Source: Zootoca vivipara
Lineage: Eukaryota
Direction: 5' to 3'
Length of the DNA: 64,000 nt
Assembly (NCBI RefSeq): GCF_963506605.1
Contig: NC_083279.1
Location: 79,360,001-79,424,000, forward strand
Part shown: positions 23,863-59,470 of the stretch, piece by piece
How the letters are laid out: the number at the start of each line of letters is the position of its first letter
How positions within the stretch are numbered: the stretch's first letter is position 1
Notes under the pieces: generated by a model
The model's input: only the letters and a program-made list of their open reading frames with translations
Told to the model about the DNA's origin: nothing
Databases searched by the model: none
Program-made: the position numbers and the translations under genes

Positions 23863-23897
23863 ATGCCTGGGTTTTTTCCTGCCTTCTCCACAGACAG
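23863..23897 (+). CDS. SPATA13: Predicted coding part of distal first exon (MPGFFPAFSTD+AG, phase 2)
   Basis: First ATG after the inferred TSS; in-frame TGA at 23848-23850 upstream; CAG|gtaaga donor at 23897/8; 35 nt = 11 codons + 2, compatible with exon 44257. Kozak context is weak. Confidence 0.5.
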
Positions 23898-23936
23898 GTA
23901 AGAGAGGATTGTGATGTTTGCCCACCTCTAACTTCT

Positions 23937-23986
<50 letters not shown>

Positions 23987-23987
23987 G
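23937..23987. repeat. (TTG)17 microsatellite
   Basis: Perfect repeat 40 nt downstream of the donor at 23897. Confidence 0.97.
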
Positions 23988-25620
23988 CTTTTCTCCTATT
24001 CTCTGGAAGTGTGTTGCGGCCGTTTAAAGGCGTAGTGGGCTCACGGTGGCACGAGTCGTGGTTTAAGTGTGGCGATCAAGCTGCATCAGCCGGGTGCTTT
24101 CCCACCCAAACGCGTAGAGCTTTTTAAAAGTTCTGTTGCAATAGTGCGCTTGTGCCGCTGCTGCTGCATCTACAGCGGAGATGGATTAAAACTGAAACCC
24201 CGAGGGCGCTCAGTGGAAAGCAAGTCTTCGTGTCCTCGGTTAGCAGGGCTCGAGGGAAGGTGTGTGGTGCGGGTGCTGAATCTTTACAACAAATACAAGT
24301 TTTATTTAAAAAACCAACCAACAAACAAACCGAAAACTGGAAAGAGGCTTTAAAGGGCTGAAGCAGGCTTAGCTTGCAATGGTGTACTGTATTCGGGTCC
24401 AGATGCTTAATTTTGATCATTGATGCAGTTTGAAATCTTCCAAAAGCTCGGAATTTATGGATATACAAGGAATATGGATTTGTGGATTTGTATGTATGTC
24501 TGGGTGCCTGTGGCTACAATGCCATTACAGTACAGTACTCACTTATTTGGGAGTAACAATTTGATACACACACACACACTCCTTCTCCGGTGTTAATGAA
24601 TCCGAGGCAGTCAGGGTGTTTAGTTAATGTATTCAGGATTAGGGTGCAATGTCTCTAGTAACTTCTAAAATAACTCGATGGCATGTTCAATGACATGAGG
24701 AGAGTGTTATTTACTCAAGATTATTACCTTGATTTCATGGCTATAGGATGAATGGGCGGAAAGCGATTTGTGCAAATTTTATCATGGATGACTGAATATT
24801 TATGATGTGGATTATCTCATCTGTATGTACTGTACCTACTTGATAAAAACTGAACACACTGCCTGTGTGTTAGGCAAGCACTGATAATGTACATGCCCAG
24901 TATTCCCACTTCTCCTTTGACATTCATGTTTCATGTGGTGTTAAATTAGTGAAGTGGGAGAATGGATTGGCTGATGAACAACAAGGTGTAGGGAAAATAA
25001 GAACACTGCTTAAACATGTCGCTGAGTTTTAAAACAGGGCAGATCCATTCAATAGTCTCCCTTCTATCCCTCTTACTCCTCCCACCCACCTGTCTGCTCC
25101 TCCCTCCCTCCTGGAGTTAACTTCACAGCCCTTAGCTGAGCTTTCTGTTTAGACCAGGTAGGCTACACACCATACATTTAAGGGACACCCTGCTCTGGGA
25201 CTGTAGTTTGTTAAGGGTTGTCACTGTAGCTCTGTGAGGGGTAAACTACAGTTTCCAGGATTCTGTGGGGGTGGGAGGGAGTGGGAATGTACTTTAAATG
25301 TAGAGTGCATACGCAGCCTCTGTACCATCAAGCATGGCTCATGTGTCCCAAGAAATAACTGAAAATATTTATTAAAAGCTTGAGATGCAATCCATGCAAC
25401 CAGGTATCCTGCTTTTCCAGGCACATGTGCGCTGTATATACAGTTTAATTTGTATAGCCCTTGCAGACACTTTCATGAACATATGCAAGTTGGGAGCAGG
25501 GATAATGTACTGGTATTTGACCCTGTTTCTCTCAAGTGTATGGCATGTTGGAGGTAAGGGGTGCCAGAATATCTTTTGGTGCAAGACCCTCATGATTTTT
25601 AATTGGTGGTGTTTCCAATA

Positions 25621-25850
25621 CAGTGGTACCTCGGGTTACAAACACTTCAGGTTACAAACGCTTCAGGTTACAGACTCCGCCAACCCAGAAATAGTACCTC
25701 GGGTTAAGAACTTTGCTTCAGGATGAGAACAGAGATTGTGCTCCAGTGGCGCGGCGGCAGCAGGAGCCCCCATTAGCTAAAGTTAAGGACAATTTCAGGT
25801 TAAGAACGGACCTCCGGAACAAATTAAGTTCTTAACCAGAGGTACCACTG
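25621..25850. mobile_element. Tc1/mariner (Tigger-like) MITE
   Basis: TA|CAGTGGTACCTCGGGTTA...TAACCAGAGGTACCACTG|TA. Confidence 0.92.
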
Positions 25851-26324
25851 TAAAACAGAACAGCTAGCAGGGCAACACTGGTAAATGTTCCCAGCTAATT
25901 CTACAAATTGCAATATTATTTCTTCATGCTCAAGCTCCCCACATAAGAGGAATTGAGTGATGGGGCAGACAGCTCTCATGTGCTTTTGGGTAGTTCTCTT
26001 GTGAATTCTCAAGTTGATGAACAGGATAAGGACACAGTGGCTCCTTGCCTGTATTTCCACAGATCCTAGATTTTAAATTTTATGTGGCTTTTAGTGTGTG
26101 TGCGTGTATAGTTTTTGTAAACCACTTTGATCTTTTAAAAATGAAATTGCAGTATACAACTAATTAAATAAACAAAATAGAGGCCTGGTGAAATTGGCAG
26201 GTGATGTTCTCTCGCCTTTCTCTTCCTGTCTTCAACCAGTCATAACAACTGGGCCTCTTGGAGAGGGAACTCGACCTCCAGAATACTTCGCACCTCTCCT
26301 GCAGACATCATGAGAGAGACCACT

Positions 26325-26457
26325 TTGTTGTTGTTGTTGTTTAGTTGTTTAGTCGTTTAGTCGTGTCCGACTCTTCGTGACCCCATGGACCATAGCATGC
26401 CAGGCACTCCTGTCTTGCACTGCCTCCCGCAGTTTGGTCAAACTCATGTTTGTGGTT
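26325..26457 (-). mobile_element. Bov-B LINE extreme 3' end
   Basis: Reverse-complement match to 5165-5286, with (TTG)n tail. Confidence 0.9.
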
Positions 26458-26951
26458 TTATTTTTATGTTAGTTGGCTTAAGGCATGATGGTAAATGAAA
26501 GCTTGCTTTGTAGGAATTGTTCAGGAACAGTTTATCCATGTGAAAGTATAACTCCAGCAAACCTGCCAAGGCCAGTTAGACCTTAGGTGATCTCCTGTGC
26601 AATTGTTGGCAGGCTATACAATGTTAGGCTGTTTGGGTCTACTGTAATTCTTGCATCCAATTTATTCAGGATTTCAGAAATCCTGTGAGCAATGTAGCTT
26701 TCTACTTGGGCTCAGTTTCTTTTCCCTGGACTATAGGTACCGTATCAACAACCAAAGCTGTGTGCGTTCCTTATGCTCCATAATATACTACCTTTTCACT
26801 TTATCAGAGGCTGGAGGAATGTGCTGCTGAGAAGACACATTACTGTGTTTAAGACCTTATCTATTGATTTATATTTGGCTTGAATCGATTTGCCTCACTG
26901 AAATAATTAGGATACTACTGTAATTATTTTGCCAGCAGTATTCATTTAGAT

Positions 26952-27081
26952 CAGGGGTGGGAAACTTATGGTTCTTCAGATGTTGTTGGATTTGAGTTCC
27001 CATCAGCCACTGCCATTATGGCAAATGGTCAGAGATTGTAGTCTTAACAACATCTGGAGGGCCACAAATTCCCCATCCCTG
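26952..27081. mobile_element. hAT-type palindromic MITE (family also at 34411-34555, 47905-48035, 48990-49100, 49655-49737, 60481-60610)
   Basis: CAGGGGTGGGAAA..cagatgttgttgga...aacaacatctggagggccaca..CCCCATCCCTG. Confidence 0.8.
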
Positions 27082-27224
27082 GTTGACACGAATTAGGTAT
27101 TAGTTTGGGGGGGAGTGAGGGGTGAGGCAGCCTACATGTTACCACAAAGGCCTCTTCATTTCCAGTGAAGAACAGAAATTCCCAGTATCAGCCTCTGTGA
27201 AAGGTGGGCATGAAGAGTCTTGGG

Positions 27225-27475
27225 CAGGGGTCAGCAAACTTTTTCAGCAGGGGGCTGGTCCACTATCCCTCAGACCTTGTGGGGGGCCAGACTATATTTT
27301 GAAAAAAATATATGAATGAATTCCTATGCCCAACAAATAACCCAGAGATGCATTTTAAATAAAAGGACACATTCTACTCATGTAAAAACATGCTGGTTCC
27401 CGGACTGTACACGGGCTGGATTGAGAAGGCGGTTGGGACGCATCCGGCCCCCGGGCCTTAGTTTAGGGACCCCTG
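27225..27475. mobile_element. hAT MITE with perfect 8-bp TSD (fragment also at 47528-47587)
   Basis: CAGGGGTC..AAACT / AGTTT..GACCCCTG TIRs; TSD gtcttggg at 27217-27224 and 27476-27483. Confidence 0.93.
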
Positions 27476-27568
27476 GTCTTGGGGGTTGGCTAAATGTGGT
27501 GTAGTTAGAACTTTCTCCAGTAGCATAGATATGCCTTGCCTCTACTTGCTATAGAATATGTTCCAAGA

Positions 27569-28158
27569 CAACCAGAAGCACCATAACCAGACACTGGAAA
27601 GACCTGTCAGGAGTAAGCATGGACCAATGGTACCAAACAGTATGGGAAACAGCCTTACTAGAAAAATTAACCAATAAGTTGAAACTGACATGGGGACAAA
27701 TAGAAGAAGACGGCTTCACCCCAGTATGGTTCCCCTTTATCACATACACAGCCCAACAAGACAAAAATCCACCAACAGCATACAAATCAATATGGTTAAC
27801 CTGACCCAAAACACTCACCCACCCCACTCACACACAAAACAAAGACCACCACAGCCAACCACAAAGGAACAACTATATCCTAGGCCAACCCCAACATCTC
27901 TCACCATCAAAGGAACACAAGTGAACAGCAGAGAACCTACACAAGCGATGCTGACAAAAAAACCCCACACTTATTAAGCAAAATAGAAACATTGTCACCG
28001 ACCCCACCCCCACCCCCACCCCACACCCTCCCCCCATTACTTTCCTTCCCCTCTCCTCACCAATGTCTCAACAAATGAAACTGATTTATAAAAATGTTAA
28101 GAGAGACATTGCACCTATCTTTGTAAACAAAGAAAACCTTTAATAAGAAAAAGAAAAA
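27569..28158 (+). mobile_element. 5'-truncated L1-clade LINE with perfect 16-bp TSD
   Basis: ORF2 C-terminus-like TRSTITRHWKD...QWYQTVWETALLEKL...FTPVWFPFITY, stop at 27804, 3'UTR, A-rich tail; TSD agaatatgttccaaga at 27553-27568 and 28159-28174. Confidence 0.88.
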
Positions 28159-29033
28159 AGAATATGTTCCAAGAAGTACCCAACTTGTACATTCCCTCAG
28201 TTATCCCAGGCACAGGTCCACACTGTAAAGCTTTGTGCCTTAGCACACTTTCTTTTAACCCCAGAGCTTTCCCCCCACTAAAAATCCCCTCTTCAAACTG
28301 CAACAAATGGCAGGTCGGGTTCGGGCAGGTTTTCGCAGGGAAATATTCAAAGTGAAATCAGAGTGCTTGGAAATGCAGGCTGTGCTTTGGAAGCTCTAAT
28401 ATTCTAATTCAGGTTTATCCCTATCCAAACAACACCTGCCTTGTAAATCTAAGATCAGATAGACTCAGGGCTAGTCTTCACATACAACAGTTCTAGTAAG
28501 CGATGGATGGGTGATAAGTTAGTTAGAGATTACCACACCTTTATGAGATGAAGAGATGAAGTTCATTACTGATCATTATTTAATAACTGGGAGGGGAGAG
28601 GCCCTACTTACAAATCAGGCCTGCTTTTCAAATCGCCTCAACCCCTGTTTCTCTAAACACGAACATGGCCTCAAGGTGAGGAAGCTTTCTCTCCTCCTAA
28701 CCAAGAAGCTGTGTTCCCACTCCTCCCCTATGAATCCGACTTGTGTCTCAGAAAAATGTCACTGTGTCCCTTGAGTACAGGAAGAGGGGCATTGTTGCTC
28801 TCCCTTAGGATAATCCTGTTGATGCTCATGGCTATCACAACATTGTTCTCAACACTTGACTTTCCTCCATAGGAATAATCAGATACAACCCTTTGTGCTA
28901 ACATAAGATGTACGGTTTTATTTTCCAAAGAAATAACATCTCAAAAAAATAGCTCTTGGCCAAGAGGTGGCCTGCCATTATACCGGTAAGGAAAATGTGT
29001 AGAGACCAGGACTGCAATGCTTACAATTGACTT

Positions 29034-29181
29034 GCTGGTTAGCTCAGCTGGTTAGAGCAATAGTGCTGACAATGCCAAGGTCACGGGTTTGATCCCCATA
29101 TGGGTGCATATTCCTGCATTACAGGGTGTTGGACTAGATGATCCACAGGGTCCCTTCCAACACTATGTTTCTATGATTCTA
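29034..29181 (+). mobile_element. tRNA-Ile-derived SINE with CR1-type tail
   Basis: Head resembles tRNA-Ile(AAT) (ggttagctcag.tggttagagc..gtgct.a.aa.gccaaggtc.cgggtt.gatcccc); tail ttggactagatgatcc..ggtcccttccaac..tctatgattct. Confidence 0.8.
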
Positions 29182-30096
29182 CTGGGACAAAATGCAATGC
29201 TAAACATTGGTGCAGACCCACCTTAGAAACACGAGGAAAAGGGGAATTAGGCCTACAATTGTAAACATACACACTGGATAGTAAGTCCCATTGGACAGAG
29301 TGTGACTTGCTTTTAAATTAAATTTTAAAATAAATAAAAATGATCAACTGCTTATTGGTTAAAAAAATTCTCGAACAAATATGCACAGGATTGTGCTGTA
29401 CATTTTAAAAAAAGCACTGGTACAGACAAACTCTTAAATGCTGTGGTGATGAGGTTTAATTGATCTTAGCAATCTATGTGGTTATCCATACACAAAAATA
29501 TTCTAATCGTTGATTTGTCAGCATGGTGACAAAAGTCCAATTTTGTAAGATTAATCAACCTGTCACACCTACAAGAAACACTCGAATCAGCACACAGTGC
29601 AGTAATAAGAGATCACTTTTCCCTACCTTTTTTGCTTGACTCCACTGAACCGCCACTGCCCAGCTGTGTCAGGCATTTTGTTGAGAACTAAATTGGACCC
29701 TGCTGCCTTTAATAACATTTTAATGGCTCAAGCCGTGTATATCCGGCTCCTTGTAGTGTTTTTAAAAGGTCCCCACCTTGCTTTGAATGAATGCTTCGTC
29801 TTATAAAACAAAAGCTTGTGGGGGTGTGTGTGTGTTTTCAACTCTTTTTTAAAAAGGCTATTGCAGAATTCACACTGGTTTCCCTAAAATAAAAATGAGC
29901 TTCTGGTGTCTTTTCTACACTTCAGACTTCTTTATACTCTGATTCTGGCAATAATTATAAAGAAAATGTAGTAATGTATATCTATTTTAAAAAGAGCACC
30001 AACATTTTGCCTATACTTTCCCATGTGCGGTGCAGTTTTAAAAATACCCAGAGATTCACAGGTCACCTTTTCTCCTTTATCCTATGGGAACTATCA

Positions 30097-30425
30097 TAGG
30101 AACATATAAAGCTGCCTTGTATGGTGACAGACCATTGGTTAAACTAGCTCAGTACTGCCTGCACTGACTGGCAGTTGGCTCTCCAGGATTTGACAGAGTT
30201 CTCTCTCATGCTCACCTGAAGATGCTGGGGAGTGAACCTGGGACCCTCTACATTCAAAGCATAGACGAAGACATAGATTTGTAGAGTTGGAAGCATCATT
30301 AGTCCAACCCCCTGCAGTGCATGAATCTTTGGCCCACTGTGAGGCTCGAATCCATAACCCTGAGATTAAGCGTCTCATGGTCTACCGACTCAACAGATGC
30401 TTTTCAACTGAGCTACAATCCTCCC
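30097..30425 (-). mobile_element. Squam2-like SINE interrupted by a second SINE
   Basis: Host runs 30097-30266 and resumes at 30394 (cagatgct...actgagctac). Confidence 0.75.
30272..30390 (-). mobile_element. tRNA-Lys-derived SINE with CR1-type tail (nested)
   Basis: Reverse complement agtcggtaga.catgagac.cttaatctcagggt..tgg.ttcgagcc.cac..tgggc matches tRNA-Lys(CTT), followed by ctgcagggggttggacta..ttccaactct. Confidence 0.82.
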
Positions 30426-30764
30426 TATGGCCTATACCTCTGCTAAGTAATTTTTTTTACCCATTTTCACTGATCAGAGAAAAGAGAAGAACCCCGAAAA
30501 ATATAGATAACAACTTTGTCATTTGCTGCCCAGTACAGCCTGAAATATCATTCATGTGCAGCAGCAGAAACATGCCAAGCCCATCTGAGAAGTAGGCGTC
30601 CTCCTACATCTCATGTCAGATACAGACAGCACTTTTCACAAGATTTCCTGTCCTTCAGGGCTGTGGTTCAATTAATTACTAAGTTGGGAAGGTATGAACC
30701 ACTTCAGCTCCATAAAGCTATGATTTAAACAAACAAGCACGAAATTTTTTCCCATATGTATATA

Positions 30765-30953
30765 CAGTGGTACCTCGGTTTACAAACAGTCCCGTTTTCG
30801 AACGCCTTCGTTTACTAATGCTGCGGTCCCGGAAGTGTTTACATCCGGGTTCTGCGGCATTGGATGCGCAGACGCGTGCCTTCGGGGAGCGAATGCCTCT
30901 GTTTACGAACACCTCCGTGGAACAGATTGCGTTCGTAAACCGAGGTTCCACTG
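30765..30953. mobile_element. Tigger-like MITE
   Basis: TA|CAGTGGTACCTCGGTTTAC...GTAAACCGAGGTTCCACTG|TA. Confidence 0.92.
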
Positions 30954-31689
30954 TACTATATATGAAGATCGGTTCTTAACATTCCGTCCTACAGCATACA
31001 TTTAAAGCTCATTTTAGGCATATGACTTGCCCCAAAGAATCCTGGGGAACTCTAGTTTACCCCACTATAAGGAGTTAGGTGTCTTCTAGTAGGAAATGTT
31101 GTATGGGCTGACTTGTCCATGTAGAGTTAAAAAAAAAGAAAAAGTGGAGAAAGAATGGTTGGATAATGATAAATTTAGGAAGGAAAGAACAGGAATCCCC
31201 AATCGTTTGGGCCTTGAGTACAGCTAATAAACGCTTGTGGGCACCATAAAGTACCCATTTCACAGAATTAAATCTGGTGATACACACACTCACACTTCTT
31301 GGGCACCTTGTGGGGGACTCCTGCTCTAAGATGTAGGCCCAAGCATGCATGAGAAACATTGTATGAGGGTATCTGATAGGGGATAACTTTTCTTCTATAG
31401 AGAAAGTTTTGATACAGTAGAAAGGACACAGCATGGTATGGACTATTAACAGTTATCAACAGTACATTCAGGTGCAAACCAAATGCAAAACAGCTAATGC
31501 AGACAAATTTTCTATATGTCAGTCACGGAGAGTCCCACCAACAGAGCTGGGGAAGATGTCATGTGAATGAATTGTTTCCAGCTCTTTACCTTTTCTCTTT
31601 GCCCACTTTAATGCTGTGTAATAGTAGTGTGCATAATCACTAGCTGTTCAAATGCTGGCCTCCCCAGTTAATGTTTAATAGATTATTTT

Positions 31690-31799
31690 ATTTTATTTTT
31701 CTGTTGGAAGCTGCCCAGAGTGGCTGGGGAAACCCAGCCAGATGGGTGGGGTATAAATAAAAATTATTATTATTATGATTATTATTATTATTATTATTA
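31690..31799 (+). mobile_element. LINE (L2-like) 3' terminus with (ATT)n tail
   Basis: gaagctgcccagagtggctggggaaacccagccagatgggtggggtataaataaa followed by ATT repeats. Confidence 0.7.
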
Positions 31800-32263
31800 A
31801 AAGGATCTTGCTGTCACAATCTGTACAATGCAACATGCAATGAGAAGCATTGTGGTTTACAAAAACGTAGATAAAGCTAACTCAAATTTTCAGTGTGAAT
31901 CATTGAAATTATGTTGTTTTAGTACTGCTTTGGGTGTTTAGTACAATGTTGACAACATATTTACAGATTTAATGCTGAAAGGCTGTTTGCATTGACATTA
32001 GGGGAACATAAGGAGGTCAGACCAAAGGCCTATCTACTCCAAGATCATCTTGTTCTTGGCCAACCAGTTGCCCATGAGAAGCCTACAAGCAGCACCTATG
32101 TGAAATAAATAGCACTTTACCTACTTGTGATTCCCAGAAACTGGTATTCAGAGGCATATTTCCTCTGACAGTGGAGGGGTATGTGTATATTCATTCAGTG
32201 ATAGAGTAATGGGAAAGAAAAGAAAGTAGAAACAAAGAATTGAAATTGTGATAAAATAGAGTA

Positions 32264-32536
32264 CAGTGGAACCTCGACTTACGAATTTAATCCGTTCCGA
32301 ATGCACACTCGTAGGTCGAAAACTTCGTAAGTCGAGTTTCCCATAGGAAAAGCGGTTTCCCATAGGAATGCATTGGAAACGGAAAAATTTGTAAGTCGAG
32401 GAAACCGCATCTAGCCGCGAACTGGTTTTTCGTTTGGATGTTGAAAAAATTGTAAGCTCACGGCCACTTTTTCTGCTCGTAAGTCGAAAACGTCGGATGT
32501 CGGATGTCGAGTACTTCGTAAGTCGAGGTCCCACTG
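32264..32536. mobile_element. Tigger-like MITE
   Basis: TA|CAGTGGAACCTCGACTTACGAA...TTCGTAAGTCGAGGTCCCACTG|TA; CpG-rich interior suggests a young copy. Confidence 0.93.
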
Positions 32537-33099: not shown

Positions 33100-33218
33100 T
33101 TGGGCGCCCTCGCAGGGTGCAGTATGGTTTCCGCGCGGCTTTGCCGCGCAGCGCCCTGCCTACCGGCCCAGCGCCCTGCCACACCGCGCCACCGGGGCTC
33201 TACCTAAAGCCGGCCCTG
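33100..33218. mobile_element. GC-rich MITE end (TIR ...GCCGGCCCTG)
   Basis: Terminus is complementary to the CAGGGCCGG starts at 38989 and 39457. Confidence 0.55.
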
Positions 33219-43232: not shown

Positions 43233-44256
43233 CTATAGCACATAGAGCTAAAAAGGTGGGGTGGGAGCACCTGTACCTTTAGAATGAGATGAATCAGGAT
43301 TTCCTTTCTGTCTGAAAACAGGTTTTACAAGTACTTGCCATTAAGGTTCTAACAAAGGTTTCAGTGCCAGTTGTGCTGTTAAAACATAGCTAATTGCCTT
43401 TTATTGCCAATGTAGAGAATGGGTGGGTGGGTGGGTGTGCTCGCATGCACACATGCATGCTTAGCGCCTGTGCACATCAAAGCTCCTACTGATGGGCCTG
43501 GTTAGGTGACTCCCACCCATACTGTTTTTGCATCACAGTCAATAAAGGATAATATTCCAACCATCTCAGGAGCCAAGTACAGCACCGGGAGTTTACATAT
43601 AATTCCCAGCAAAAACATCACAGATCAGCCTGTGTATCACTCTGTGGCAGCAGAAAGCCCCATGTCTGCAGAACTGCAGTTATTAAAGTGCACAAGGAGG
43701 AATTCTTTGGATGGGGAACTCCAGCGGAAGGGAGTACTCTGCAAGAAGGAACACTTTGCTAATTGTGCAAACAGCCGTGGGGCAGATGGATAATGTTTGT
43801 CACATCTCAAGACCCTTACAGGTGTACTGCTGCAGGACACGATGCAGATATCCTATGGAATTGCAATTCTACTACAACAGTGACTGCAAGGACCGGCTAC
43901 TCCATACAGGTAAGCAAGAGGGTCTTGGCCAGTTTCCTGAACTTCTTCCATCTCCCTCTCCTTGCTTCAAAGTATGCCGAGCACTCAAATATGTATCAGA
44001 GTGTCTCCTCCCATACCCTTTGCCTTGCAGTGTGGGGAAACTGCACTGGTTTAACAAGCCTTCCTTGCTCAAAGGGACGCAAGGCATATAAGTGCTGTGT
44101 GGACATGGGAGAGGGGGCTGCTAGCCACAACTCAGGGAATACAACTTACATGTGTTAGGGTGGGTTGTGGGGAACACATTGGTAGTGAACTCCATGCATT
44201 CCCTTCTTCTTAATGGAATTGTTGGCCAGTCACTCACGACTCTTTCTTCCTTACAG

Positions 44257-44335
44257 GATCAGAGCCAGGGCACATGAAGCAGAAAAAGCTTTCGCTGGAG
44301 AAGGGGGTACCAGTGCAGCTCATTATATTGCATGG
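44257..44335 (+). CDS. SPATA13: Predicted 79-nt internal exon of SPATA13 (phase 2 in, phase 0 out; (R)IRARAHEAEKAFAGEGGTSAAHYIAW)
   Basis: Branch-like cactcac, then tctttcttccttacag|G acceptor and TGG|gtgagt donor; no stop in the frame that joins exon 57668 in phase 0. Confidence 0.65.
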
Positions 44336-46029
44336 GTGAGTATTGGCTCAGTTGCTATATTGTGTCTCCCAGCAGGCTGAATTTCCAAAATCTGAGGTGT
44401 AGCCAATGAAGTCCTACTCTGTAGACCCATTGAAATTAATGGAACTGAGTGAGTCATGCCCATTAATTTTAGTGAGTCTGCTCTCAGCAGGACTAGTATT
44501 CCATGCAGCCCACTGATAGCTGTGGTGGTGGTGGGGGTGCCAATAGGAGAATGGGGGCTGGGGAATGTGGAGCAGAAGAGCACAGAGATGTCACACTCCT
44601 TCTTGAAGATGCATTTGCCAAATGAGCACCCACTCATTCATCTGTTGCAATAGCTATTCGTTCCTCTGCCCATGTCTGTCTTGTCTTGTCTCTTCACAGG
44701 CCACCAAGTAGCCACAGGGGACTGAACATGCACAGGGGAAAGGATGTTTCTTACCGCTACCAGTGCAGAACACCAGGCCTCCAGCAGCAGCAACCAGTGG
44801 GAAGCCTGTGTTCCTATGTGGGGTTGCTGCCTTTTAAATATCCCTGGGCTTCTGTGCCTCTCAGAAGCACATGACAGACAGAAATGCAGCAGGAGCAGCA
44901 GTGCAACAAATGCACTGAGCTGCACTTGTTGCTTAGCTGCCCGTCGTGTCACCCACAGAGTGGCAGGAAACCTATAGCCAGTAGCAACCTCACGTTGCTA
45001 GGATGCTGTCCCTTCAACACTGAAACTGTTCAATAAAAGCTTGTGCCAGTGTCCGCTGTGTTTTTGTCCTGTTGATGGCTGTCCAGCATCTTCACTGTGG
45101 GAACCTCGCAATAGGAGGAGGAGGGCACTGGGCTTTCCATCATCACAGCCCTTCTAGGCTGGCTGGCTGGCTGTGCGGGAATCAGATCCACACCTCTCCT
45201 TTTACACTGCACTGCTCTGTGCTACTGCATTGCTAAGTGGCTGGATGTGTTTCCTTCTGTGAGCTTGCTTTTGTAATGTGTACGCTTCCCTATCCAAACG
45301 GCTCTCTCTCATTCCCCATTGCAAAATGGTTGTTTCCTAAACATAGACACCAACATACACTTATTGTGTGAAATGTTACAAAAAATATTTGCACATTCTC
45401 AGAGCTGGCCCACCCCTGAGGCTGGGTGAGGTGGCCGCTGCAGGTGTCACCCTCCCGGAGCAGTGGCATCCTGTTTCGCTGCCCAGAGTTACCACTGGTT
45501 CCCCCGGCCTTTGGGGGCAGAGAGGGACTGGTGACGAAGCTATGCGGAATGCCTCCCCTCCTGCTGAGTCGGTGAGAGGGGAGGCACTCTGCCACTCGGC
45601 TTTGCCACTAGGCAGGAGGTCTCCAACCAATCCCCTGCCTGAATGGAGGAGCTCAAACAAAGCCCCACTGGGAGGTAGGAGGGGAGGGGGGATTGGGAAT
45701 AAATCTCCCCACCACTGCCCGTTGGGGAAGTCTCCTTATGGAGTTTGCGCCCCGTGGGGCATTTCACTTCAGGTACTGAACTGTCGTGGGCTCCCTCGAC
45801 CTGGGATCTTGTTGTGAATAAATTGGCACTCCTTCCTTTGGTCCTAGCTATTTTCCTGACCAAAGCAGGGGTGGTCCATATTTTTCAGCCCAAGGGTTAC
45901 ATTCTGTTGCAGAAATGTCCACAGGGCCACATGCCAGTGGAGGGTGGGGCCAGGTGTAAAAATGAGTGATGCAATGTAGGTGATGCTTACCTTTCTACAC
46001 TGCGTTACATATACATATACCTCTCTCCA

Positions 46030-47713: not shown

Positions 47714-49406
47714 AAGTGTGTAGAATGAGCAAGAATGCTAGCTTACCTTATTTTTAAGTCACATTACACATTACTATCTGAAAAATCCCTCCCTCTGTAA
47801 AACCATATTAAGTGAAGTAACACATATTGATTACCATCTAAAGTGCCACCCTTAAGACCATTAAATCCAATGTGTGTGTTCTGGAATACTTTAAGACTAG
47901 AGTAGTCTTTCCCAACCTTGGGTTCCCAGATGATGTTGGACTACAATTCCCATAATCCCTGATCATTGCGTCATACGTCTGGAACTCATTGGAATTGTAG
48001 TGAATCAACTTGTGGGGACCCAAGATTGGGAAAGACTGGAAGAGTGTAACATTACCCCATTGCACCACTATTCTCATGAAGGGGTTTCTCAACAGACAAG
48101 TCAAGGTAGGAAAGATTCCTTGAAACTTGAAAGTTTGGAAACTTCCATAATAGAGGAGAGAGACTACTGGCTGAATTTTCCAAGTCTTCCTTGTGAATGG
48201 CTTTGGATGTTATATTGGGGCAAAGGGAACAGGAAATATTCCCTTTGTCACACTTTAGTGTGACTGTGTCACACTTCCTGTGCCTTTGCATTTCCATCTT
48301 GGGCCAAAACAGTTGTTTTGCATATTCCATGCTGAGGGGACTGCACGTGATCCTGATGCAGGGGCAGCTTGTCCATCTCTCTGTTAGGTTGCAGTCCCAT
48401 GCTCACTGACCAGGAAGTAAGTCTTATTGAACTTCTGGGATTTAGCCCATGCCTAGGATTGCACTGTAAAAGCTGTTTCACACCAGATGGAGATACAGGG
48501 CAACAAGCTATGAGAAGCTCTTACATTTCCTGTTCCCTTTGCAAAAGCCAAAGAGGCTTAGAGGGAGAGATGATGAACATACTATGCATGACTAGAGCTA
48601 CCCCACCTACAAGGGCTGCTCCATCCAGTGACAAAGCTCAGGTCAAGGAAAACAGAAGAAATATAAACCCCTGTTGAAAATATCCCTGCATCTGTAAATG
48701 GGACTCAAAGTGCACAGTTAAGCACTTGATTTTGGTGGGATTTAACCTTTGCTGTATCTTTTCGTACACATCTAATTGTTCAGAGCCTTTCAACATAGCA
48801 ACCGCAGAGGCAGCTAAGGTAACCAGCTTCTTACCAAATTCATTGGGGTATTTTTGTTGCATCATGCAACAAGAGCAGTTATGATGTTGCAAAATGCTTG
48901 TGTTGCTGCAATGTTCTTCTCTTGCTGCAATATTGCAAGAAAAGAAACTCTGCAAATCTTTCAGCAAGCACTCATTGTATGCAATTTTGAGCAGCCTTTC
49001 AGACTGCAACTCTCATCAGCTCCAACCATTATGACTAAAGGTCAGGGATGATGGGAGCTGCAGTGCAACAGCACCTGGAGTATGTCAGGTTGGGAAAGAC
49101 TGAGTTAGAGAAAAATTTGTTAGTTAAGCATAAGAATGGCTCATTAAGGCTACATACATGCTGTACCTTTAAAGCACATTTGAAACATTCTTTCCCTCAA
49201 AGAATGATGGGCTACAGTTTGCTAAGGGTTTCTGGGAATCATACCTCTGGAGGGCTAAACTATAGTGCCCAGAATTCATTGAGGGAATGAATATGTTTCA
49301 AATGTGTTGTAAAGGTAGGAAGAGCCTACTGGATCAGGCCAATGACTCATCTAGTCCACCATCCTGTTCTCATAATGACCAACCAGACCATGCTGATTGT
49401 ATATAG

Positions 49407-49541
49407 CAGGCATCCCCAAACTTCGGCCCTCCAGATGTTTTGGACTACAATTCCCATCTTCCCCGACCACTGGTCCTGTTAGCTAGGGATCGTGGGAGTT
49501 GTAGGCCAAATATCTGGAGGGCCGCAATTTGGGGGTGCCTG
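49407..49541. mobile_element. hAT MITE with perfect 8-bp TSD
   Basis: CAGGCATCCCCAAA / TTTGGGGGTGCCTG; TSD gtatatag at 49399-49406 and 49542-49549. Confidence 0.93.
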
Positions 49542-49869
49542 GTATATAGTGTGTATACAACCTAAGAAATGTGTTTGCTGGACAAAAGATAACCACCTTC
49601 AAAATGTGGGGACTTTACAAATGATTCCACACATACATAGTATAGTGCAACTTTTGCCAGTCTGGTGCCCCCAGATGTTTTGGATCACAACAATATTTGT
49701 CCCAAACATCTGGAAAGCACCAGGTTGGCAAAGGCTGGTATGGATGAACACTTAGAATGGAAGGCTATGGGCATTCAAGATAGGAACCTGCCTTATATGC
49801 CCCCTCTTCCTTCACTTGGAACATTGTTTCAAATCCTGGGATTGGACAAGTTTTAAACTAAAACAAATA

Positions 49870-50050
49870 CTGTATATTCCAGCGTATAAAACGACTGGGC
49901 ATACAAGACGACCCCAACTTTTCCACTTAAAATATAGAGTTTGGGATATACTCGCCGTATAAGAAATACGACCCGGCATATAAGATGACCCCCGACTTTT
50001 GAGAATATTTTCCTGAGTTAAAAAGTAGTCTTATACGCAGGAATATACAG
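49870..50050. mobile_element. Tc1/mariner (pogo-like) MITE
   Basis: TA|CTGTATATTCC.GCGTATAA...TTATACGC.GGAATATACAG|TA. Confidence 0.9.
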
Positions 50051-53000
50051 TACTTAGAAATATAACTTTGCTAGATTAGACCAAAACTCCATGTCAATCA
50101 GAAAGAGGCAGTTACTATTGTTCTTTATATATCTTTCCATCTATAACATGATTCCCCATGATCTGAAAATGCTTTTCATTTAGCATGAAACCTATTAGCC
50201 ATAATTGCTTTTAAAACCCGGTTATGGAAAACCAATCTGTGAGATTAAAAATGGAAGAAACTTGACCACTTCCATTTATCTGATTCTTTTCTTCTTTTAC
50301 ATGCATGGTTTCTCTTCTCTGTTTTTTAAACATTAAGTCATTAGTTGAGACAAAAATAAAGGTAGAGTTGCAGCCTGCTTAATTAGAAACAGGAAGTTTT
50401 CTTTATATTTGAGACACAATGATCTATTTATTAGAAACTGCTCTTCTGTAATATGGACTGTTTCTTCATGTCATGCCGGCTGAATAATGCCTGTTGAGGA
50501 TGGGAGAACAATAATAGTGTCACAAGCAAACTCATTGAGGGTATAAATAGCTTTCTTCCAGACTGAAAGGCTGAATCTACCATTAAGTTGCATGCAGCTG
50601 CACGGGTGAAGGTGGGTGGGTAAGAGCAGCTCCGACAATATAATCGTAACCTGGTACACAGAGGTCCTGTTTCTCAGATTGCGTCACTCCACAAGGCCTT
50701 TGTTCCCCAACCTAAATTGCAACTCTGTGCCCAATGGAGTGGGGTGCAATAAGCTCTTGGCAAATGTGAAGAAGGATGGTACTGATAAAGGATGAAATCT
50801 CTATTTCACTTCAACCATTAGTTCTCGGGGACAAGTTAGTTTCTAACCTTGAGTTCATGGATGTTGTTAATTGAGAGACCATTTGGGAATCTTTAGCAAA
50901 GAGTTAGTAAGTTATTTTTACACGCTTCTTTCAAATTAAAAGGGCAATCGGGCAATTTCATATAGGCTGATTATTAACTCATTTTTCACATTCACCCATT
51001 CCTCAGCAATTGAACAGGTGGCCTATTAAGAGATGGGGTTATGAAAAATATCTGCTTTTAATGACTGCATTTGGACATAGCAAAAAAATGTTTTAATCGC
51101 AAAAAAAGCATAGACAAGGAGATCAGAAGCCTTCATTTCTGTTTTTAACTATCTGCTGCTTAGCTTTATGTGCAAACCCAGACAAACTGTGATTAGTCTT
51201 AACTATGGCTTAGTGCAAGGATGGGGAAAGTGGATGCAAGGAGCTGGAGTCAATACTTGAAGGGCCATGGGTTCCAAATCTGAAAGGAGACGTTTTTGTA
51301 CTGTGGTTCATGAAGCTAGCTTGCTTTAATAAACCATATGTGAGGAGGCACTTTCACAGGAATTGTCTTGCACACAGTCATGTTCCCACACTCCATTTTG
51401 CCTAGTTCAGTATACTTTACCACCTGTCTCCTTTTCCATCTTCTCTCCTATCCAAACATCTTCATTCTGTTTCTCATCCCCAACCCATCAGTGTCATCTC
51501 ATTTCACTTTATGGGACAGACTCCAAGCTGTTGATCTTCACAGCAGGCTAGGTAGCTTTCTTGCAAGTAAATGCAGAAGTGAGGAAGGCATAAATCAGCT
51601 TTGTGGCAGATCAACTCCAGAAGAATCTCACCAGCTGGGGTTGTTTTTATTCCATCCTCCTTGGAGATGTGAGAATGGCCTCTGTTACCTGTTTCAAGAA
51701 TGTTGGGAGTGGGCCTGGACATTCTCAGCTGTGGTGCTGAGGGAAAGTCCTGAAGTTTTCTCCCCGAGTGGGCATTTTCTGACCCCAAACCTATTTTTCT
51801 GCAAACGTCTGGAGCTTTGAGGACTGTATCAAACCCTAAATCAATTATATTCATCCAGAGGTCGTGATTCTTAGCATACCTACTGTCAGTTTGGTATCCC
51901 ATTTTTTCTCCGTCACACATGGGCTCCCAAAGAGAGAAGACTAATACTGAACTTTGTTGAAGGAACTTAGATGAAAGTGCCTAGAGCAAAAGCAAATACG
52001 CAAATGGAAGAAAAGATGAAGAAGTGGTAAGAAAGCATATTAGCTGTAGGGAGGGGAGGCAGTTTACTGTTCAGAGTGGAATAATGTGCAAGACTGGGAT
52101 TATTGAGCCAGTTCAAGCAGATTTATGTATAGTTCTGCTCTACCACAGATATATAGCCTTTTGGTAAATTACGGCCTGCCAGACTCTGGTCTCTCGCTGT
52201 GAAATGGGAATAATAAAGATTTATTGCAACAGGGTTTTGAAAGGCGAACACAATAAAAGCTAAACAGTACATTGCAAATTAGAAGTGCTATATAAAGTAT
52301 TTACGGTGCTAGGGATTAATATTAATTGCTAATATCCAAACACATTTGCATTTTTAAAATTATTTTTTTCTTTTAGAGAGAATCCCCCTCAGTATAACTT
52401 GTTTCCTGTCACCTTTCTGTAATCATTTCACACACTGCTTCAGTTTGTAATCCTCTTCACTCCTTGTCACATGCATATTAAACCTTCTTTAAATCGGAGA
52501 TTTAAAAATTTAAAACATGCCTTTCATTTTGTTGCTATAAATACCAGAGACCATCATCAACACACACTAACAGCTCTTTTGCCCTTTACCAATCAGGATT
52601 TTGTTCTCCAAACGTGTTCTGTTTTTTAATGTCTACGCTTGATTCTCCCACACTTTATGATGTTTGCAGAAGGGTTTATTGAATTACATATGTTATTGTT
52701 CAGCTGGGGACAAATGAACAGGTTTCAAATAATAAGAATGAACTGCAGCTTTTTAGAACAACATACAAAAAGTGATTGCTCAGGTTCTTGTACCTCCATT
52801 GGTTAGGCACAATGCTAGCATAACCCTCCTGACATTACTTAACCATGCTTAAATAGTTGTGAACTGTCTGGGGTATCACACATTCTTTCCCTGCCTCCTG
52901 CTTAAGGAGATGCCTAGCCTCAGTTAAACAGTGGCTAACAGAAATTCCCATTCCAGAAGGGAGAGGTGGAAGAAGGGAATGTGCAGTCCTGCAACCTGTG

Positions 53001-53354
53001 TCCAGTTGCCAAACCATGGTTTGGTGATGGCGAGTGCTCCTAGACTCACACCTTCCTCTGCTTCTCATGTCTTTTCCTCCCCACCCCCCCGGTTAGCTTC
53101 AACTTAAATTTGAACCATTATAACCATGGTTACCACTAACCATAGTTTGCTTCTAAAATCAGAGACTGAAACCAGGATCAGAAATTGGTTTCAATCTCTG
53201 GTTTGAAAGCAAACTACTGTACAGTAAACGATTATGTTAATGCATGTGTAATCTGGCACTGTAGTTAACACTAGTGAGGAAAGAGACAGGGTTTCAGAGT
53301 GCTGATTCCCAAGCCATGGTATATTACAGGTTCCCAATAGCATGTGCAGAGCCT

Positions 53355-53486
53355 GAATCATAGAAGAGAAGGGATCCTGAGGATAATCTAGTCCAAATCC
53401 CCTGCAATGCAGGACTATGCCGCTGTCCCTTACCTTGAACCTGCAACCTCGGTGTTATCAGCACCACTCTCTAACCAACTGAGCTA
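53355..53486 (-). mobile_element. tRNA-Ile-derived SINE with CR1-type tail
   Basis: Reverse complement tagctcagttggttagaga..ggtgctgataacaccgaggttgcaggttc, then the tail shared with 29034. Confidence 0.78.
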
Positions 53487-53669
53487 GTCTGCACGAATTG
53501 ATTGTATGTATGATATAGGTACCGGTATATATACAATATATATTGTTTCTGAAGTTACCCTGAATGTGTGCAAAGAGAGGGCGGTTTCAACATGCATGAG
53601 CAAGACTCCCCACCATGTACATGTATAGAAACTTTGCATATTCACCAATGTCTTGACTACCCTTTAGAA

Positions 53670-53890
53670 CACGGGTTTTCAAACTGTGGTCTGTGGACCA
53701 CCAGTGGTCCATGAACTTCATTCAGCTTGTCCTGCAGCATGTCTGTGGATTTGTCATTGAACACAACACATCAGCTGCATTAAATACACATAATGGTTTT
53801 GAACAGTACGTTATTGGTTCTTTTATTTTTTACATTTTATTCCATAGAATTCAGATTGTGATGCAGAAAATACTATAATATGACAATTGC
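53670..53890. mobile_element. Old hAT-type MITE (left part)
   Basis: cacgggttttcaaactgtggtc.gtggaccaccagtggtcc start. Confidence 0.55.
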
Positions 53891-54539
53891 TAAAACAGGT
53901 AGGGAAACCCATCAGTTGCCTGCCATTAGATAGGCTCCTTTGCAATTATCAAGTGGTTGGTTGGGGTGGGGATATGAGAGCCTGCATTAGAACATGTGAA
54001 ATTTTATAACTCAGAACAGGCTATTTAATTTTCAGGTTTTAAGTAAAACATTTCTGCAAATGAGAATACAAAGTTCTCAATTGTGCAGCTGACAGTACAT
54101 GGGCAATTAACAGCAGGTAATTTATATGTTAAAATATCTTCAGTTTCCTCTTCCTCCAGCTCTTTCTTAAGCCACAAACAACCAGCTTGAATTGACTCAG
54201 CAGGAACTGCGATGATAAGGGCAAGATTTTACAGGGGGATTATTTTTTCAAAGTGCAATCGTATAAAAGTCTCCACAGAAGTAAATTTCGTTAATTTTAG
54301 TGAAGCTTACTCTTAGGTAAGTGGGTATAGGATTGCACTCTTAGGCTGCTGCTTTTTCAAAAGAATTTTTTTTTTAAATAGGTCTAGCGATTTTGCAGGG
54401 GGAAACTTGATAATATGAACCACTCAACACTCTTGAGTTGTTTGTTTTATTTTTAAAGAAGCTTCGCAAAATTCATTTTCGAGATGATTTAAAATAAAAC
54501 CTTGTAATGTTGCTAGATTCTGAGGGTATCTTAAAAACG

Positions 54540-56280
54540 AAACAAAGCACCGTTCCCCGACCCCCACCAGGGAAAAACCTGGCTGTCCTGGTTCACTTTT
54601 TGTCATTTATATTGGCTGGGCTGCTACTCTTGTTATCGGCTGTTCAATTGATAATGAAATCCAAACGGAGAGCCAAACAGCCTCCCTTTGTCTCTGGCAG
54701 AGTCGGAAGAAAGGCGGGGTGGTTGGGGGGAAGGGGCACTTAATGAGTGTTTGCCCAAATGTAAATCATCTTGTTTTAAGTCAGATGCGTGATTATTTTA
54801 TCCCGTGCCCCCAGCCCTCCCCTCCGGGTCAACTTTCGTTGTATCGTTATAGATAAAGGGGCATGGACTGTGCCTCCAGGGTGAAGGGGCCACTGGACGG
54901 GCATCGGCTCCTCTTTCACTGAGGAGACAAGGATAATTTCTCTCACCAAGAGGGGGGGAAATTGATGGGAAAGAATAGAGATGCGACGAGCATTGGGCAG
55001 ATCGGGCAAGGTTTTCTGACACCACTCCACTTGATTGATTTAACATTGGTTTTAGTGGTGGCCTTTAAGATACCGTTTTAAGGTTGCCATCCTATGTCGG
55101 GGAGTTTTAAGTCCCATTCAAGTCCACGGGACTGGACTTCTAAGGTGACTCGTATAGGATCGCACCATGCGTGCTGCGCTTAATAGTCTGCAAACCGGCC
55201 AGAGTCGTCGGTTATATGGGTAGTATAAAATTGCAAAGTTGTTTTTACAGCTGCTACTGCTGCTGCTAGGGTAACTCGGAGTGGACTTTGGTGCTGAAGG
55301 GGCGCGAGCTCCGTTCAGCCCTGCTGCTAAAAACAAGCTCTTCGGTTAAGAATCCTTTTGCACCAGACTCGTCGGTAGATTTCCAGAACCTAGTAGAACA
55401 AAGACAGCCCGCTAAGGGACTATCCGCACATCCCTGGGGGAGAGGGTCCCCAGGGGCCACTTTGGTAACGTGGCTCCTTGAGCGAGGACAAAATTCTGCG
55501 GACATTTATTTTCACACCAATTCCTTTTGGTGCAGTTGGCCTTTCATTGATCTTCTCGGCAGCTATCCGTATAAATACACCGGAGGTAGTGGTAGTTGTT
55601 TGTTATTTTGCGCCCCCCTGGCGCCCCAGCCCGTGCGCTTAGGCTAGCCGGGCACCCCCAGCCTGCCAATACTGGTCAGGTCCCTGCCCTGATCTTGCTG
55701 CTAAGGTCTTTCCTCTCCCTCTCCGCCTCTCGCTCTCTGTTCCGGTTGCTGCCATAGTGATGCTTGGGAGCAGATTAGCCGCCTATACCAGGGGTGGGGG
55801 TGGGGAGGCAGCCGCCGCCACCACAGCGACTAGGAGGCGTGTTTATGGGGGAGGTTTCTGTCGCTGCTCCACATTCATTTTTCCGTCCTCTTCTTCCCTC
55901 CGGTGTAAGGGGGGCGGGGAGAGGCCACCTTAGAGGATCAGAGGTGATCCAGCTCCCCCGCCTCTCGATCCTGGCTGTGATCTGCTGTCCGGGGTGCAGC
56001 GTCGGCGGAAAAGTTTAGTCCGGTCCTCCTTGCCAGGTAACAGCAGCTGCCGGAGGGAGGGAGGGATGGAGGGACGGCGAGCGCATGGCTTTCCCCAGCT
56101 TCCTTAGCGATAGGAGCCCATCTGCTCTGTTGGGGGTTCTCTTTTTTCTTCCTTTCCTCGGATTAGAAAGAAAAGGAGAGCCTAGCAGGTGCCCCTGCCA
56201 CAGCTATAGGAACTGGAAGCTAAGAGGGAGAAAGACTAGGCGGACTCGTTATCTTTTGCAGGCCAGTGAGGGAAGCGATT
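54540..56280 (+). promoter_or_regulatory. SPATA13: CpG island / proximal promoter
   Basis: CpG-rich about 1.7-kb block; GC box GGGGCGGGG 55911-55919; donor CAG|gtaaca at 56036/7, 1.6 kb upstream of the large exon. Confidence 0.8.
55930..56036 (+). other. SPATA13: Predicted non-coding proximal first exon (5' end approximate)
   Basis: Donor at 56036/7 inside the CpG island; TAG at 56016-56018 is in frame with exon 57668, so it cannot extend the CDS. Confidence 0.6.
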
Positions 56281-57667
56281 CCTTGAAAGCATTTTTTTAA
56301 AACCATCCTCTTCAGTGGCAATTGTTATGTGCATTTGTTTTTTCTCTGCATTTTCTTCTCATAGTGTTTCTTTTTTAAAAAAGAAAAAGAAAATATGACT
56401 TTGCAGCACAACTTTAGACATGTTTATTCAGAAGTCAGCCCCACTGTTTTCAATGGAGCTTACTCCCTAGGGTGTCTAGGACTGCACATTTAAAAACAAT
56501 TGTCATGTTTTGCTGTGAGAGTCCTTGACTTAATCCAGCCCCCCAACCCCCCCATTTTTATTTTTAAATATAAGAACTAGAAGGATGCTGAGAAGGGAAT
56601 CCTTGTTCTGAACTCCCTCTAAAGTTATTTGAAAAATTGTTCCAACCCCTTTTAAAGCAGCTCTTTGTAAATATTTATGTTCAAGCATGTAAATTACCCT
56701 TTATGCAGTATGATCAGTTAAGCTGTGAATATGGGAATAGGGTAACAGGGAAAGATGGAATTGCAAGAGTTGTTAAAACATCTCCTGGGAGCCCACACTT
56801 AAACTCCCACTACTCCTACTGTGACAAGATTTAAATAAAAGAAAATAAAACTCCTACATAAGGAAAAGATGGACTTAACAAGGCAGGGATAAGTTTGAGG
56901 AGGAGGGTTCCAGGAATTTCCAGGTTACCTTATGAAGCGTGTACTAGATAATGCTTATGTGATGTATTTTTCTTCTAAGGGAGAAATTAAAAGTAGACGG
57001 AAAAACTTACTGGGTGTTTTGAATTTCCAGTAATCCACACAGAAGCTGAATTGGTTGTTTGTGTATGTAGGCTGAGGCATGTTTCATATTTTTCACTCTC
57101 TTTAATATTTATTAAGCTCTGAATTCTGAATGTGTTAGTTAAATTTATTTTATTATTTTAATTTTAGGATTCTTTATCTTATCCTTTCAACAAGTCTCAG
57201 TGGTCAGAGTCCCAAACATCTTTTTGGCGGGCACAGGTCCCTTCAGCAGGTGCTTTTGGGGAAATACCGCAAGGAGTGCTGTGGGGCAAAGATAGGAATC
57301 TTGAGAAATAGATCTTCTAGGAAAAACTGACTACAGAATTAGGCCCCATTGATACAGCAGCATGAAGGAAATCCAGTGGGAGCTTGAGCTGGATCCTGAG
57401 CCATGAAAAAATTACATTGATGGACCCTCTTTTGGCCCTTTGGATTCTTTCTAATATCAGTATCCCAAGCCTGCAGAGCAAATGTCCCCCTTATAATATA
57501 ATAGATATAATTAATAACTCAGATAATGTTTGTGTACTTCTCAAAAAGTATTTCTCAATTCTACGAGAGAGCCTTGTTTAAGAAATCCTTGCATTTTACA
57601 CAAAAGAATCCCTTTTTTTCTGTGGAGAAAAAAAATACTAAATGCTGGCTTTGTTTTCTTGGTGCAG

Positions 57668-59470
57668 GCAGTGCAGACTACTGGAGAACTAAATCCACAC
57701 CACAGATGTGAAAACAACAACCCCAAAAGATGCACCACTGAAGAAAAGCTTTGGTTTGGTGAGAATGAAGGAGACAAGGTTTCGGATGTGAGATATAACC
57801 CCATATATCCTGATGCTTATACAGAAAATATGACAACATATCAGAATGGCTGTGGAAACGGCACCTCCGTTACCTGTATAGTGATGGATAATAAGGAATC
57901 GAAGCACTGCAATACCTCCTTAGGTCAGAGTGGTGACACAAGCCACAGCTATGAAAATGAAGGCCAGGATGATAAAGTCAGCCCTTCCAAACTCATGCAC
58001 TTTTTCTCCACTCCTCGGAAAAGATCCGGCTCCAATGTGGAAAGGCCTCGTTCTCTGATAGTCATGGGGAACCCCTCAACATGGAATGCTCTGTCTTCCA
58101 TTAGGAAAATAGGATCTTTCAAGAAGTTAAAATCCTCCGTTCTCCAAGGAATGCCAGCCAAGGACGACTCTGACACCTTAAATGGTAGCGTGTTGGAGAA
58201 TAATATCAGAAAGCGTGTCCCAAACAATACGTTGGTGAGAGTTGAAACAAACAGGTATTCTTATTCAGGGCCACTACATGACTTGCCGAGCACAACAGAT
58301 AATGCTTTTGCATCTGATCATTCCGACGGGGAGGAAGGCGACGATTCCTTCCTGAGGAACACTCACAGGTCACGCAGCATCAGGCGTGCCTATGGGATTG
58401 GCCGTATAAATTTATTAGACACTGATAAAATTCAGGGCCATCAGGACACTACCAGGACGGTATCCCCTGTCATACAGGAGGCCCAGATTTGCGAAATAGT
58501 AGTGAAAGATTCCGAAAGCAGCAAAGTCATCTACCGGAGGAGCAAAAGCACAGATAACCTGAACTTCCTGAAAAAGAGCTCATTCAAAAGGAAGTCGACC
58601 TCAAACCTCACCGACCTCAAAGTAGTGAACGAAAAGCAAACTCCACAGAGAACAACAAGTATTTCTTCAGCGGACTCTGACAAAGCCAGCAGGAACTCAG
58701 AGCGCCAGTCGAAACGCTGGAAGAGCCCAATCAGGGCGAAGGATTTCGACAGAGTTTTGAAACTTGTCAGCAACGTTGCTGATGTTGCGTTGAAGAAAGA
58801 CAGTCCCAAGAACGAAATCCCATCCTCTAATGAGCCGAACCAGAGGACTAGATCAAACAGTCGGTTGCATGATGATTACTCACGTCGGGTTTCCAGCAAC
58901 ACTGAGAAAGACAGGCGGAGGTGTGCACCCCCCAGGAGCAGCCCAGACTCTACCGTTTCCGCATCGAGTGTCCAGAGTTCTGAGGATGACAATGCTGGAG
59001 CCAATACATTAACCCTCGAAGACAGCAGCCTCAGGATGTCGTCCTGTGACCTTCCAGATTCGGTGTCTTCGCCGCCTCCACTTCAGGACGCTGGGACAAT
59101 CGCGAACGAAGTGTTTTACGAAGACTCTGATGAGCCAAGAAGTTCTCGCCAGTTTACATGCAGCAGCACTGAGCATCCTGCCACCCCTGCTAGACCCGTC
59201 ATCCCCAAGCCTCAGAGCCCTTGTGCCGAAAACCTCGAGTGCAATATGGATCTCCGTTGTCCTGACAGGAACAGCACCTTGTCACTCAGCTCTGTGGGAA
59301 GCGAGGGAAGAGGGGATGGGCCTTCTGCCAAGCTAGGGAAGAGCCCTGTTTGCTTCCAGGATTCAGTGCAAGCTGTGTTCTTTGATGACACAAATGAAGA
59401 CAGTGGCATCAGCAGCCACTCTCAGCTGAGTCTCAATTTAGCTGCGAGTGTTGATGAAAAGAAGGAGGAG
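57668..59470 (+). CDS. SPATA13: SPATA13 (ASEF2) large N-terminal coding exon, 1803 nt, phase 0-0; conserved Met at 57830
   Basis: 660-aa ORF containing motifs I recall from the long human SPATA13 isoform: ENMTT, SPSKLMHFFST.RKR, STWNAL..IRKIGSFKKLKSSVL, THRSRSIRRAYGIGRI, YRRSKSTDNL.FLKKSSFKRKSTSNL, KRWKSPIRAKDFDRV.KLVSNV, SRLHDDYSRRVS, PKPQSP, EKKEE. Acceptor ttgttttcttggtgcag|G at 57667/8; donor GAG|gtaagg at 59470/1. The GEF domains (ABR/SH3/DH/PH) lie downstream, outside the window. Confidence 0.95.

Follow-up and report, generated by a model that had tools for sequence, protein, structure and literature searches.

A probable lacertid alternative 5′ end of SPATA13 in frame with the large N-terminal exon in Zootoca vivipara

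We analysed a window of 64,000 nucleotides from the genome of Zootoca vivipara (NC_083279.1, positions 79,360,001 to 79,424,000 of the forward strand), in which two small exons, here called e1 and e2, had been predicted to add 92 amino acids to the N-terminus of SPATA13. On balance, we favour the view that e1 and e2 are real exons of a lacertid alternative SPATA13 promoter which are in frame with the big exon, and that the 38-aa peptide they encode is an unselected passenger. They would add to the many alternative 5′ ends known for this gene, and the small exons are already modelled in a sister species. The open spacer behind the shared acceptor would show how young exons turn into N-terminal extensions.

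The SPATA13 locus and the joined frame

From its conserved Met onward, the big exon is identical to Z. vivipara SPATA13 XP_034970169.2 in 547/547 residues, and the whole exon shares 577/601 residues with SPATA13 of Lacerta agilis and Podarcis muralis. Judged by the orthology of this N-terminal exon, the gene is SPATA13/ASEF2, a member of the Asef-collybistin Rho GEFs. The L. agilis protein contains SH3, RhoGEF and PH domains in this order. Its remaining exons, which encode SH3, DH and PH, could be placed one by one and in order beyond the window's 3′ end, between +71.7 and +99.4 kb (window coordinates). Pfam returned no family for the big exon, for e2 or for the conserved 26-aa leader described below, and PDB gave no significant match for the big exon from the conserved Met. 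The features of the locus are collected in Table 1.

Table 1. Positions of SPATA13 5′ features in window coordinates
Feature	Positions	Strand	Basis
Other leader exon, coding end, 5 aa, phase 0 donor	2498..2512	+	Pattern match with GT donor
CpG-rich promoter-like region and putative e1 5′ UTR	23500..23862	+	CpG o/e 0.69-0.75, motifs
Coding portion of e1 (11 codons + 2 nt)	23863..23897	+	Strong donor, weak AUG context
Counterpart of the 99-nt phase 2-2 cassette in the L. agilis model, broken here	43811..43909	+	Mapping of the L. agilis peptide
e2, internal exon, phase 2 to 0	44257..44335	+	Splice sites, L. agilis match
54 open codons, spacer at the head of the big exon, common to all in-frame leaders	57668..57829	+	
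Big SPATA13 exon, conserved Met to end (547 aa)	57830..59470	+	547/547 to XP_034970169.2

The three exons join as predicted (35 + 79 + 1803 nt) into 639 stop-free codons, and the conserved Met is residue 93 of the joined frame, which confirms the length of the extension. The 54 codons between the big-exon acceptor and the conserved Met contain no stop. An in-frame TGA lies upstream of the e1 ATG at 23848, and no + strand ATG occurs within 23464-23862, in agreement with the claim that the e1 ATG is the first after the presumed transcription start. All four splice sites are GT/AG and belong to the top 0.1-1.3% of window sites, when scored with approximate frequency tables against all GT and AG of the window. 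The phase 2 donor of e1 (CAG/GTAAGA) was equalled or surpassed by 3/3631 window GT and the e2 donor (TGG/GTGAGT) by 46/3631. For the acceptors of e2 (TTACAG/) and of the big exon (GTGCAG/) these numbers were 5/4497 and 14/4497 window AG. The big exon ends with the donor GAG/GTAAGG. Skipping of e2, with e1 spliced directly to the big exon, is out of frame.

An open frame alone is cheap and common by chance. In the window, 17% of 37-codon and 8% of 54-codon stretches are stop-free, and of 97 strong upstream donors, 34 lie within 300 nt of an ATG that is open to them in phase 0. The e1/e2 exons are more than chance because the L. agilis model independently shows the same peptides and boundaries. 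A transposon origin of e1, e2 and the 44.7-kb region was also considered and rejected, as each was found at a single genomic place in a search that skips common words.

The promoter-like region upstream of e1, likewise found at one place in the genome by that search, contains a reverse CCAAT (23614), a GC-box-like motif (23617) and TTTAAA (23672). From these letters we infer a transcription start near e1. Use of e1 as an internal exon was rejected because the AG just 5′ of its ATG is a poor acceptor (666/4497 window AG score as well). The context of the e1 AUG is weak, with C at -3 and C at +4. Between it and the conserved Met there are seven out-of-frame AUGs, two of them with A at -3, and five lie inside the 54-codon spacer. 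On an mRNA of e1, e2 and the big exon, the weak e1 AUG would be used by some ribosomes, whose product of ~1363 aa would keep the SH3-DH-PH core unchanged, and the remaining ones would scan into the seven out-of-frame AUGs before reaching the conserved Met. With such a start and such AUGs, the long protein may carry the 92 residues at a low yield. The promoter and the mRNA level would matter, the peptide would not.

The sister-species model, RNA depth and change of the leader

The RefSeq automated gene model XP_033002229.1 (L. agilis SPATA13 isoform X2, 1396 aa) runs from e1 through a 33-aa cassette and e2 to the big exon. It has the same first coding exon, e2 and join to the big exon as the window. 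The e1 residues match in 11/12 positions, 6/26 full codons of e2 differ in residue, and 31/38 leader residues are identical. Unlike the form proposed here, that model has the cassette placed between its e1 and e2, which brings its leader to 125 aa. In the window, the in-frame acceptor of this cassette is AA instead of AG and the cassette contains an in-frame TGA, with a donor that is still strong; so only the cassette-skipping e1-e2 form can be open here.

Whether the form was already annotated had been left undecided by the original prediction, and it largely is: e1 and e2 are present in the RefSeq model of L. agilis, whereas the direct 23897>44257 junction is in none of the records listed. 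Among the matches listed, the Zootoca long isoform X2 (two versions) begins at the conserved Met, as do four P. muralis accessions for the 1271-aa form. The lacertid cluster listing covered 15 of 25 members, with Zootoca X1, L. agilis X1 and P. muralis X4 outside it, and isoforms beyond these 15, including Zootoca X1, may carry the e1+e2 leader.

The RNA stretch examined in same-species runs had e2 inside and the big exon outside, spanned neither junction and came without a positive control. The e2 bin had a depth of 0 in 3/3 raw RNA runs, of each of which ~6% was read, again without a positive control. In one contig run its depth was 0.61, which would correspond to 3.4 with coverage confined to the 79 nt. 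None of the 15 listed joints (47 more were hidden) was an e2 joint, in tables that were filled with repeats and lacked a positive control. The loose ends (24 listed, 629 more) likewise came from repeat-filled tables.

The zero depth of the e2 bin in the raw runs and the frequency of open leaders by chance are what one would expect if e1 and e2 were unused in this species and the joined frame were a coincidence of good-looking splice sites. We regard this as very improbable: the same exons are present in the independent sister-species model, the splice sites and the CpG-rich promoter-like region are intact, and the RNA depth comes from ~6% of each run with no positive control.

Clearly less probable than our preferred reading, though worth serious attention, is that e1 and e2 are in practice non-coding here. 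Either a cassette with a shifted acceptor would break the frame, or e2 would be spliced to 44700 and the transcript would end at the AATAAA at 45032, so that the 92-aa form is made rarely or never. The first route is suggested by the inclusion of the cassette in the L. agilis model and by its donor at 43909, which is among the 4 best of 3631. The remaining AG sites of the cassette give 98 or 88 nt, both frame-breaking, but they score poorly as acceptors, and the contig run had a depth of 0 in the cassette bin versus 0.61 in the e2 bin. For the second route, the acceptor at 44700 is matched by 2/4497 window AG, the AATAAA is followed by a GT-rich tract, and the e1-e2-44700 frame closes after 41 aa. 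A depth of ~4 reads was seen at 44784-45229 in 2/3 raw RNA runs; however, only few reads fall at 44.8-45.2 kb, and in the two runs they have opposite mate strands. The four P. muralis accessions for the form starting at the conserved Met also fit a non-coding role, whereas in L. agilis e2 is modelled as spliced to the big exon.

Frame preservation in a close relative had been proposed as a check, and the ATG and frame of e1/e2 are intact in L. agilis, the one species compared. The e1+e2 leader differs from that of L. agilis in 7/38 residues, compared with 24/601 for the big exon (Fisher p = 0.0014), and these values fit neutral drift of the leader. Its excess over the 54-codon spacer (3/54) was not significant (p = 0.086), nor did it stand out from the stop-bearing cassette (4/32, p = 0.53). 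The conserved 26-aa leader showed no difference (0/26, p = 0.035 versus e1+e2), and the C-terminal part of SPATA13 differed in 4/606 residues. Six of the seven leader changes are clustered in residues 18-26.

In simulations with neutral drift of 5-10%, 3.8-7.4 changes were expected and ATG plus frame survived in 55-75% of runs. Since neutral drift often keeps both, a shared open frame is weak evidence. If drift were 3%, seven changes would exceed the neutral expectation (p = 0.007) and point to positive selection. All these drift levels were assumed, constraint was tested at the protein level in one species pair, and our literature search found no usable synonymous distance between Zootoca and Lacerta. 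We observed no signal of purifying selection on the 38-aa peptide at the protein level in this pair, with 7/38 at or above the neutral expectation. One study describes coding exons of alternative isoforms as less constrained (PMC13429693).

Other leaders and the open spacer

We fetched 324 proteins and kept 258 with the conserved-Met motif in the first 200 residues; the 66 left out were short isoforms, fragments, unrelated cluster members and motif variants. Among the N-termini kept, 90 begin at the conserved Met, 71 have the shared 26-aa leader, 96 have other leaders (with 68 different starts) and one has e1+e2. Birds are strongly represented in the set, and a search aimed at the conserved leader contributed 8 of the 71 proteins that carry it. 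The comparison with other lineages that had been suggested thus gave a negative outcome: in this set, drawn from partial cluster listings, the only e1+e2 leader is that of L. agilis (1/258). L. agilis was also the sole match in a local comparison of the leader with 229 N-termini. The L. agilis leader as a query matched 0/25 candidates, a weak null result since only cluster representatives were searched. With a promoter-like region of its own, a canonical donor, a narrow distribution and near-neutral change, e1 is probably a lineage-specific alternative first exon under relaxed constraint.

This distribution bears on whether the 92-aa extension is translated and has a function of its own, newborn in lacertids and fast-adapting, which we find unlikely. 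The ATG and frame are intact in two genera, changes are concentrated within residues 18-26 (6/7), and, with seven out-of-frame AUGs ahead of the conserved Met, full-length protein would more readily come from the e1 AUG. On the other side, the leader peptide gave no constraint signal, e2 has no Pfam match, and no match was found among cluster representatives. The leader is also absent from the 12 Podarcis long isoforms listed, where the longest leaders have 85 aa and come from another exon. It is just as doubtful that e1/e2 represent an N-terminus born from non-coding DNA in lacertids, which uses the frame held open by the ancient 26-aa leader, owes its translation to the seven decoy AUGs that obstruct the usual start, and evolves rapidly under selection. 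If true, the newborn N-terminus would give ASEF2 a new location or partner.

The original prediction that a distal promoter yields a longer isoform stood only in part. These are SPATA13 5′ exons and could give ~1363 aa (92 + 1271), whereas e1 is not the most distal start, because three annotated leader exons lie further upstream, at 2498, -38622 and -57845 in window coordinates. The leader exon at 2498 is annotated in P. muralis X5, P. raffonei X4, L. agilis X4 and P. lilfordi.

The conserved 26-aa leader exon is located here at 79321378-79321455, 38.6 kb upstream of the window, and has a perfect donor and an A at -3 of its AUG. Its mean identity in the 71 lizard, bird and turtle proteins is 93% (minimum 85%), and 15/26 positions are invariant in 77 sequences. 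Behind it, in the same 71 proteins, the spacer has a length of 51-59 aa and a mean identity of 38%, compared with 70% over the 100 aa that follow, so the spacer drifts in sequence but holds its frame. Coding annotation of the 54 open codons extends to lizards, snakes, birds, turtles and crocodilians. Since many annotated leaders read them in frame, their openness is explained by leaders other than e1+e2.

Returning to the reading we prefer, a phase-0 acceptor stands at the start of the big exon, followed by 54 codons without a stop, and gene models splice a series of alternative 5′ exons to this acceptor, which several promoters would thus feed. The near-invariant 26-aa leader probably keeps the 54 codons open. 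With the acceptor shared and the spacer open, a younger 5′ exon would become an N-terminal extension at no cost whenever it carries an in-frame AUG.

The better lead is the conserved 26-aa SPATA13 leader, which is annotated and apparently unstudied. HMMER with this leader (32-aa query) against 1.84 billion representatives gave six matches. Three of them are unnamed proteins that read through the same exon, two are repeat proteins unrelated to it, and one is a further entry. Among these representatives, this single 32-aa query brought up no recognisable form from mammals, amphibians or fish. The predicted AlphaFold structure of the Anolis short isoform with the conserved leader was uninformative (mean pLDDT 31.6). 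We found no paper on this leader in the literature on SPATA13 in lizard and chicken and on Asef2 splice variants, and no study of reptile SPATA13 leaders or the N-terminus in a literature search with subscription journals mostly outside its scope.

Comparison with known SPATA13 forms

The sauropsid isoforms with the conserved leader, such as P. muralis XP_028582184.2, Gallus gallus XP_015134602.2 and Pelodiscus sinensis XP_006138943.1, resemble the e1+e2 form in using the same phase-0 acceptor and reading through the spacer, with an extension of ~80 aa. Unlike e1+e2, their leader is near-invariant and comes from a separate exon, the one 38.6 kb upstream of the window, and the two leader sequences are unrelated.

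In human, NM_001286792 is presumably a still longer SPATA13 form from a distal promoter. One report describes human SPATA13 transcripts with different 5′ ends, ASEF2a-d, and the forms SP-1277 and SP-652, and mentions primers for a third RefSeq form (PMC7233598). According to the same report, the long form has 1277 aa, is nuclear and has 625 additional N-terminal residues (PMC7233598). By description, the lizard gene resembles human SPATA13/ASEF2, in which a single Rho GEF core with SH3, DH and PH domains is likewise combined with several 5′ ends (PMC7233598).

Leader and first exons of SPATA13

The 26-aa SPATA13 leader, an N-terminal peptide from an alternative 5' exon, is present in lizards, birds and a turtle. 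In the 77 sequences compared, 15 of its 26 positions were invariant. Its exon joins both the long isoform and a short isoform (Anolis X4). The leader was not seen among the snake or crocodilian SPATA13 isoforms listed and had no match in Pfam. Two further annotated first exons, one for the long form and one for the ~747-aa form, are both intact in the genome of the window. The CpG-rich region is a candidate proximal promoter and candidate non-coding first exon; its depth in the raw RNA runs was zero.

Positions of SPATA13-related features and repeats (window coordinates; negative values lie upstream of the window)
Feature	Position	Remark
26-aa leader exon	-38622 to -38545	G000:C4:79321378-79321455 (genome of the window); L001:1501-1578 (local stretch)
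First exon, 20-aa lacertid leader of long form	-57845 to -57786	annotated; G000 C4
First exon, ~747-aa form	+68925 to +68996	annotated; G000 C4
CpG-rich region	55000-56100	moderate donor at 56036
Candidate terminal exon region	44700-45060	acceptor, AATAAA and GT-rich tract, a few RNA reads
Cassette exon	43811-43909	coding in L. agilis model
High-copy repeats	49405-49545; 49910-50050	RNA read mapping
(TTG)n microsatellite	23936-23990	~40 nt downstream of donor of e1 (first small upstream exon)

Cassette, candidate terminal exon and repeats between e1 and the large coding exon

The acceptor at 44700 is very strong, and the region behind it resembles the leader of Rhineura floridana X1/X3 (17/21 residues match); on visual comparison, so do the leaders of Varanus and Elgaria. 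The frame is broken in the window. Since an AATAAA at 45032 is accompanied by a GT-rich tract, the sequence suggests a terminal exon here. A few RNA reads were found, in two of the three runs.

The 99-nt cassette (33 aa), which lies between e1 and e2 in the Lacerta agilis model XP_033002229.1, has AA as its acceptor in the window and an in-frame TGA, and its donor is intact. This is exon turnover between sister genera.

The high-copy repeats, probably short interspersed elements, attract thousands of RNA reads with numerous inverted joints.

Single-Met models in other sauropsids

Some SPATA13 models of geckos, Anolis, a turtle, an alligator and birds (stored proteins P0010, P0020, P0083, P0170, P0180, P0237 and P0294) carry a single Met immediately before the spacer, the 54 open codons preceding the conserved Met; their upstream exon therefore ends in ATG. 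The second small exon, e2 (44257-44335), ends in ATG plus one base.
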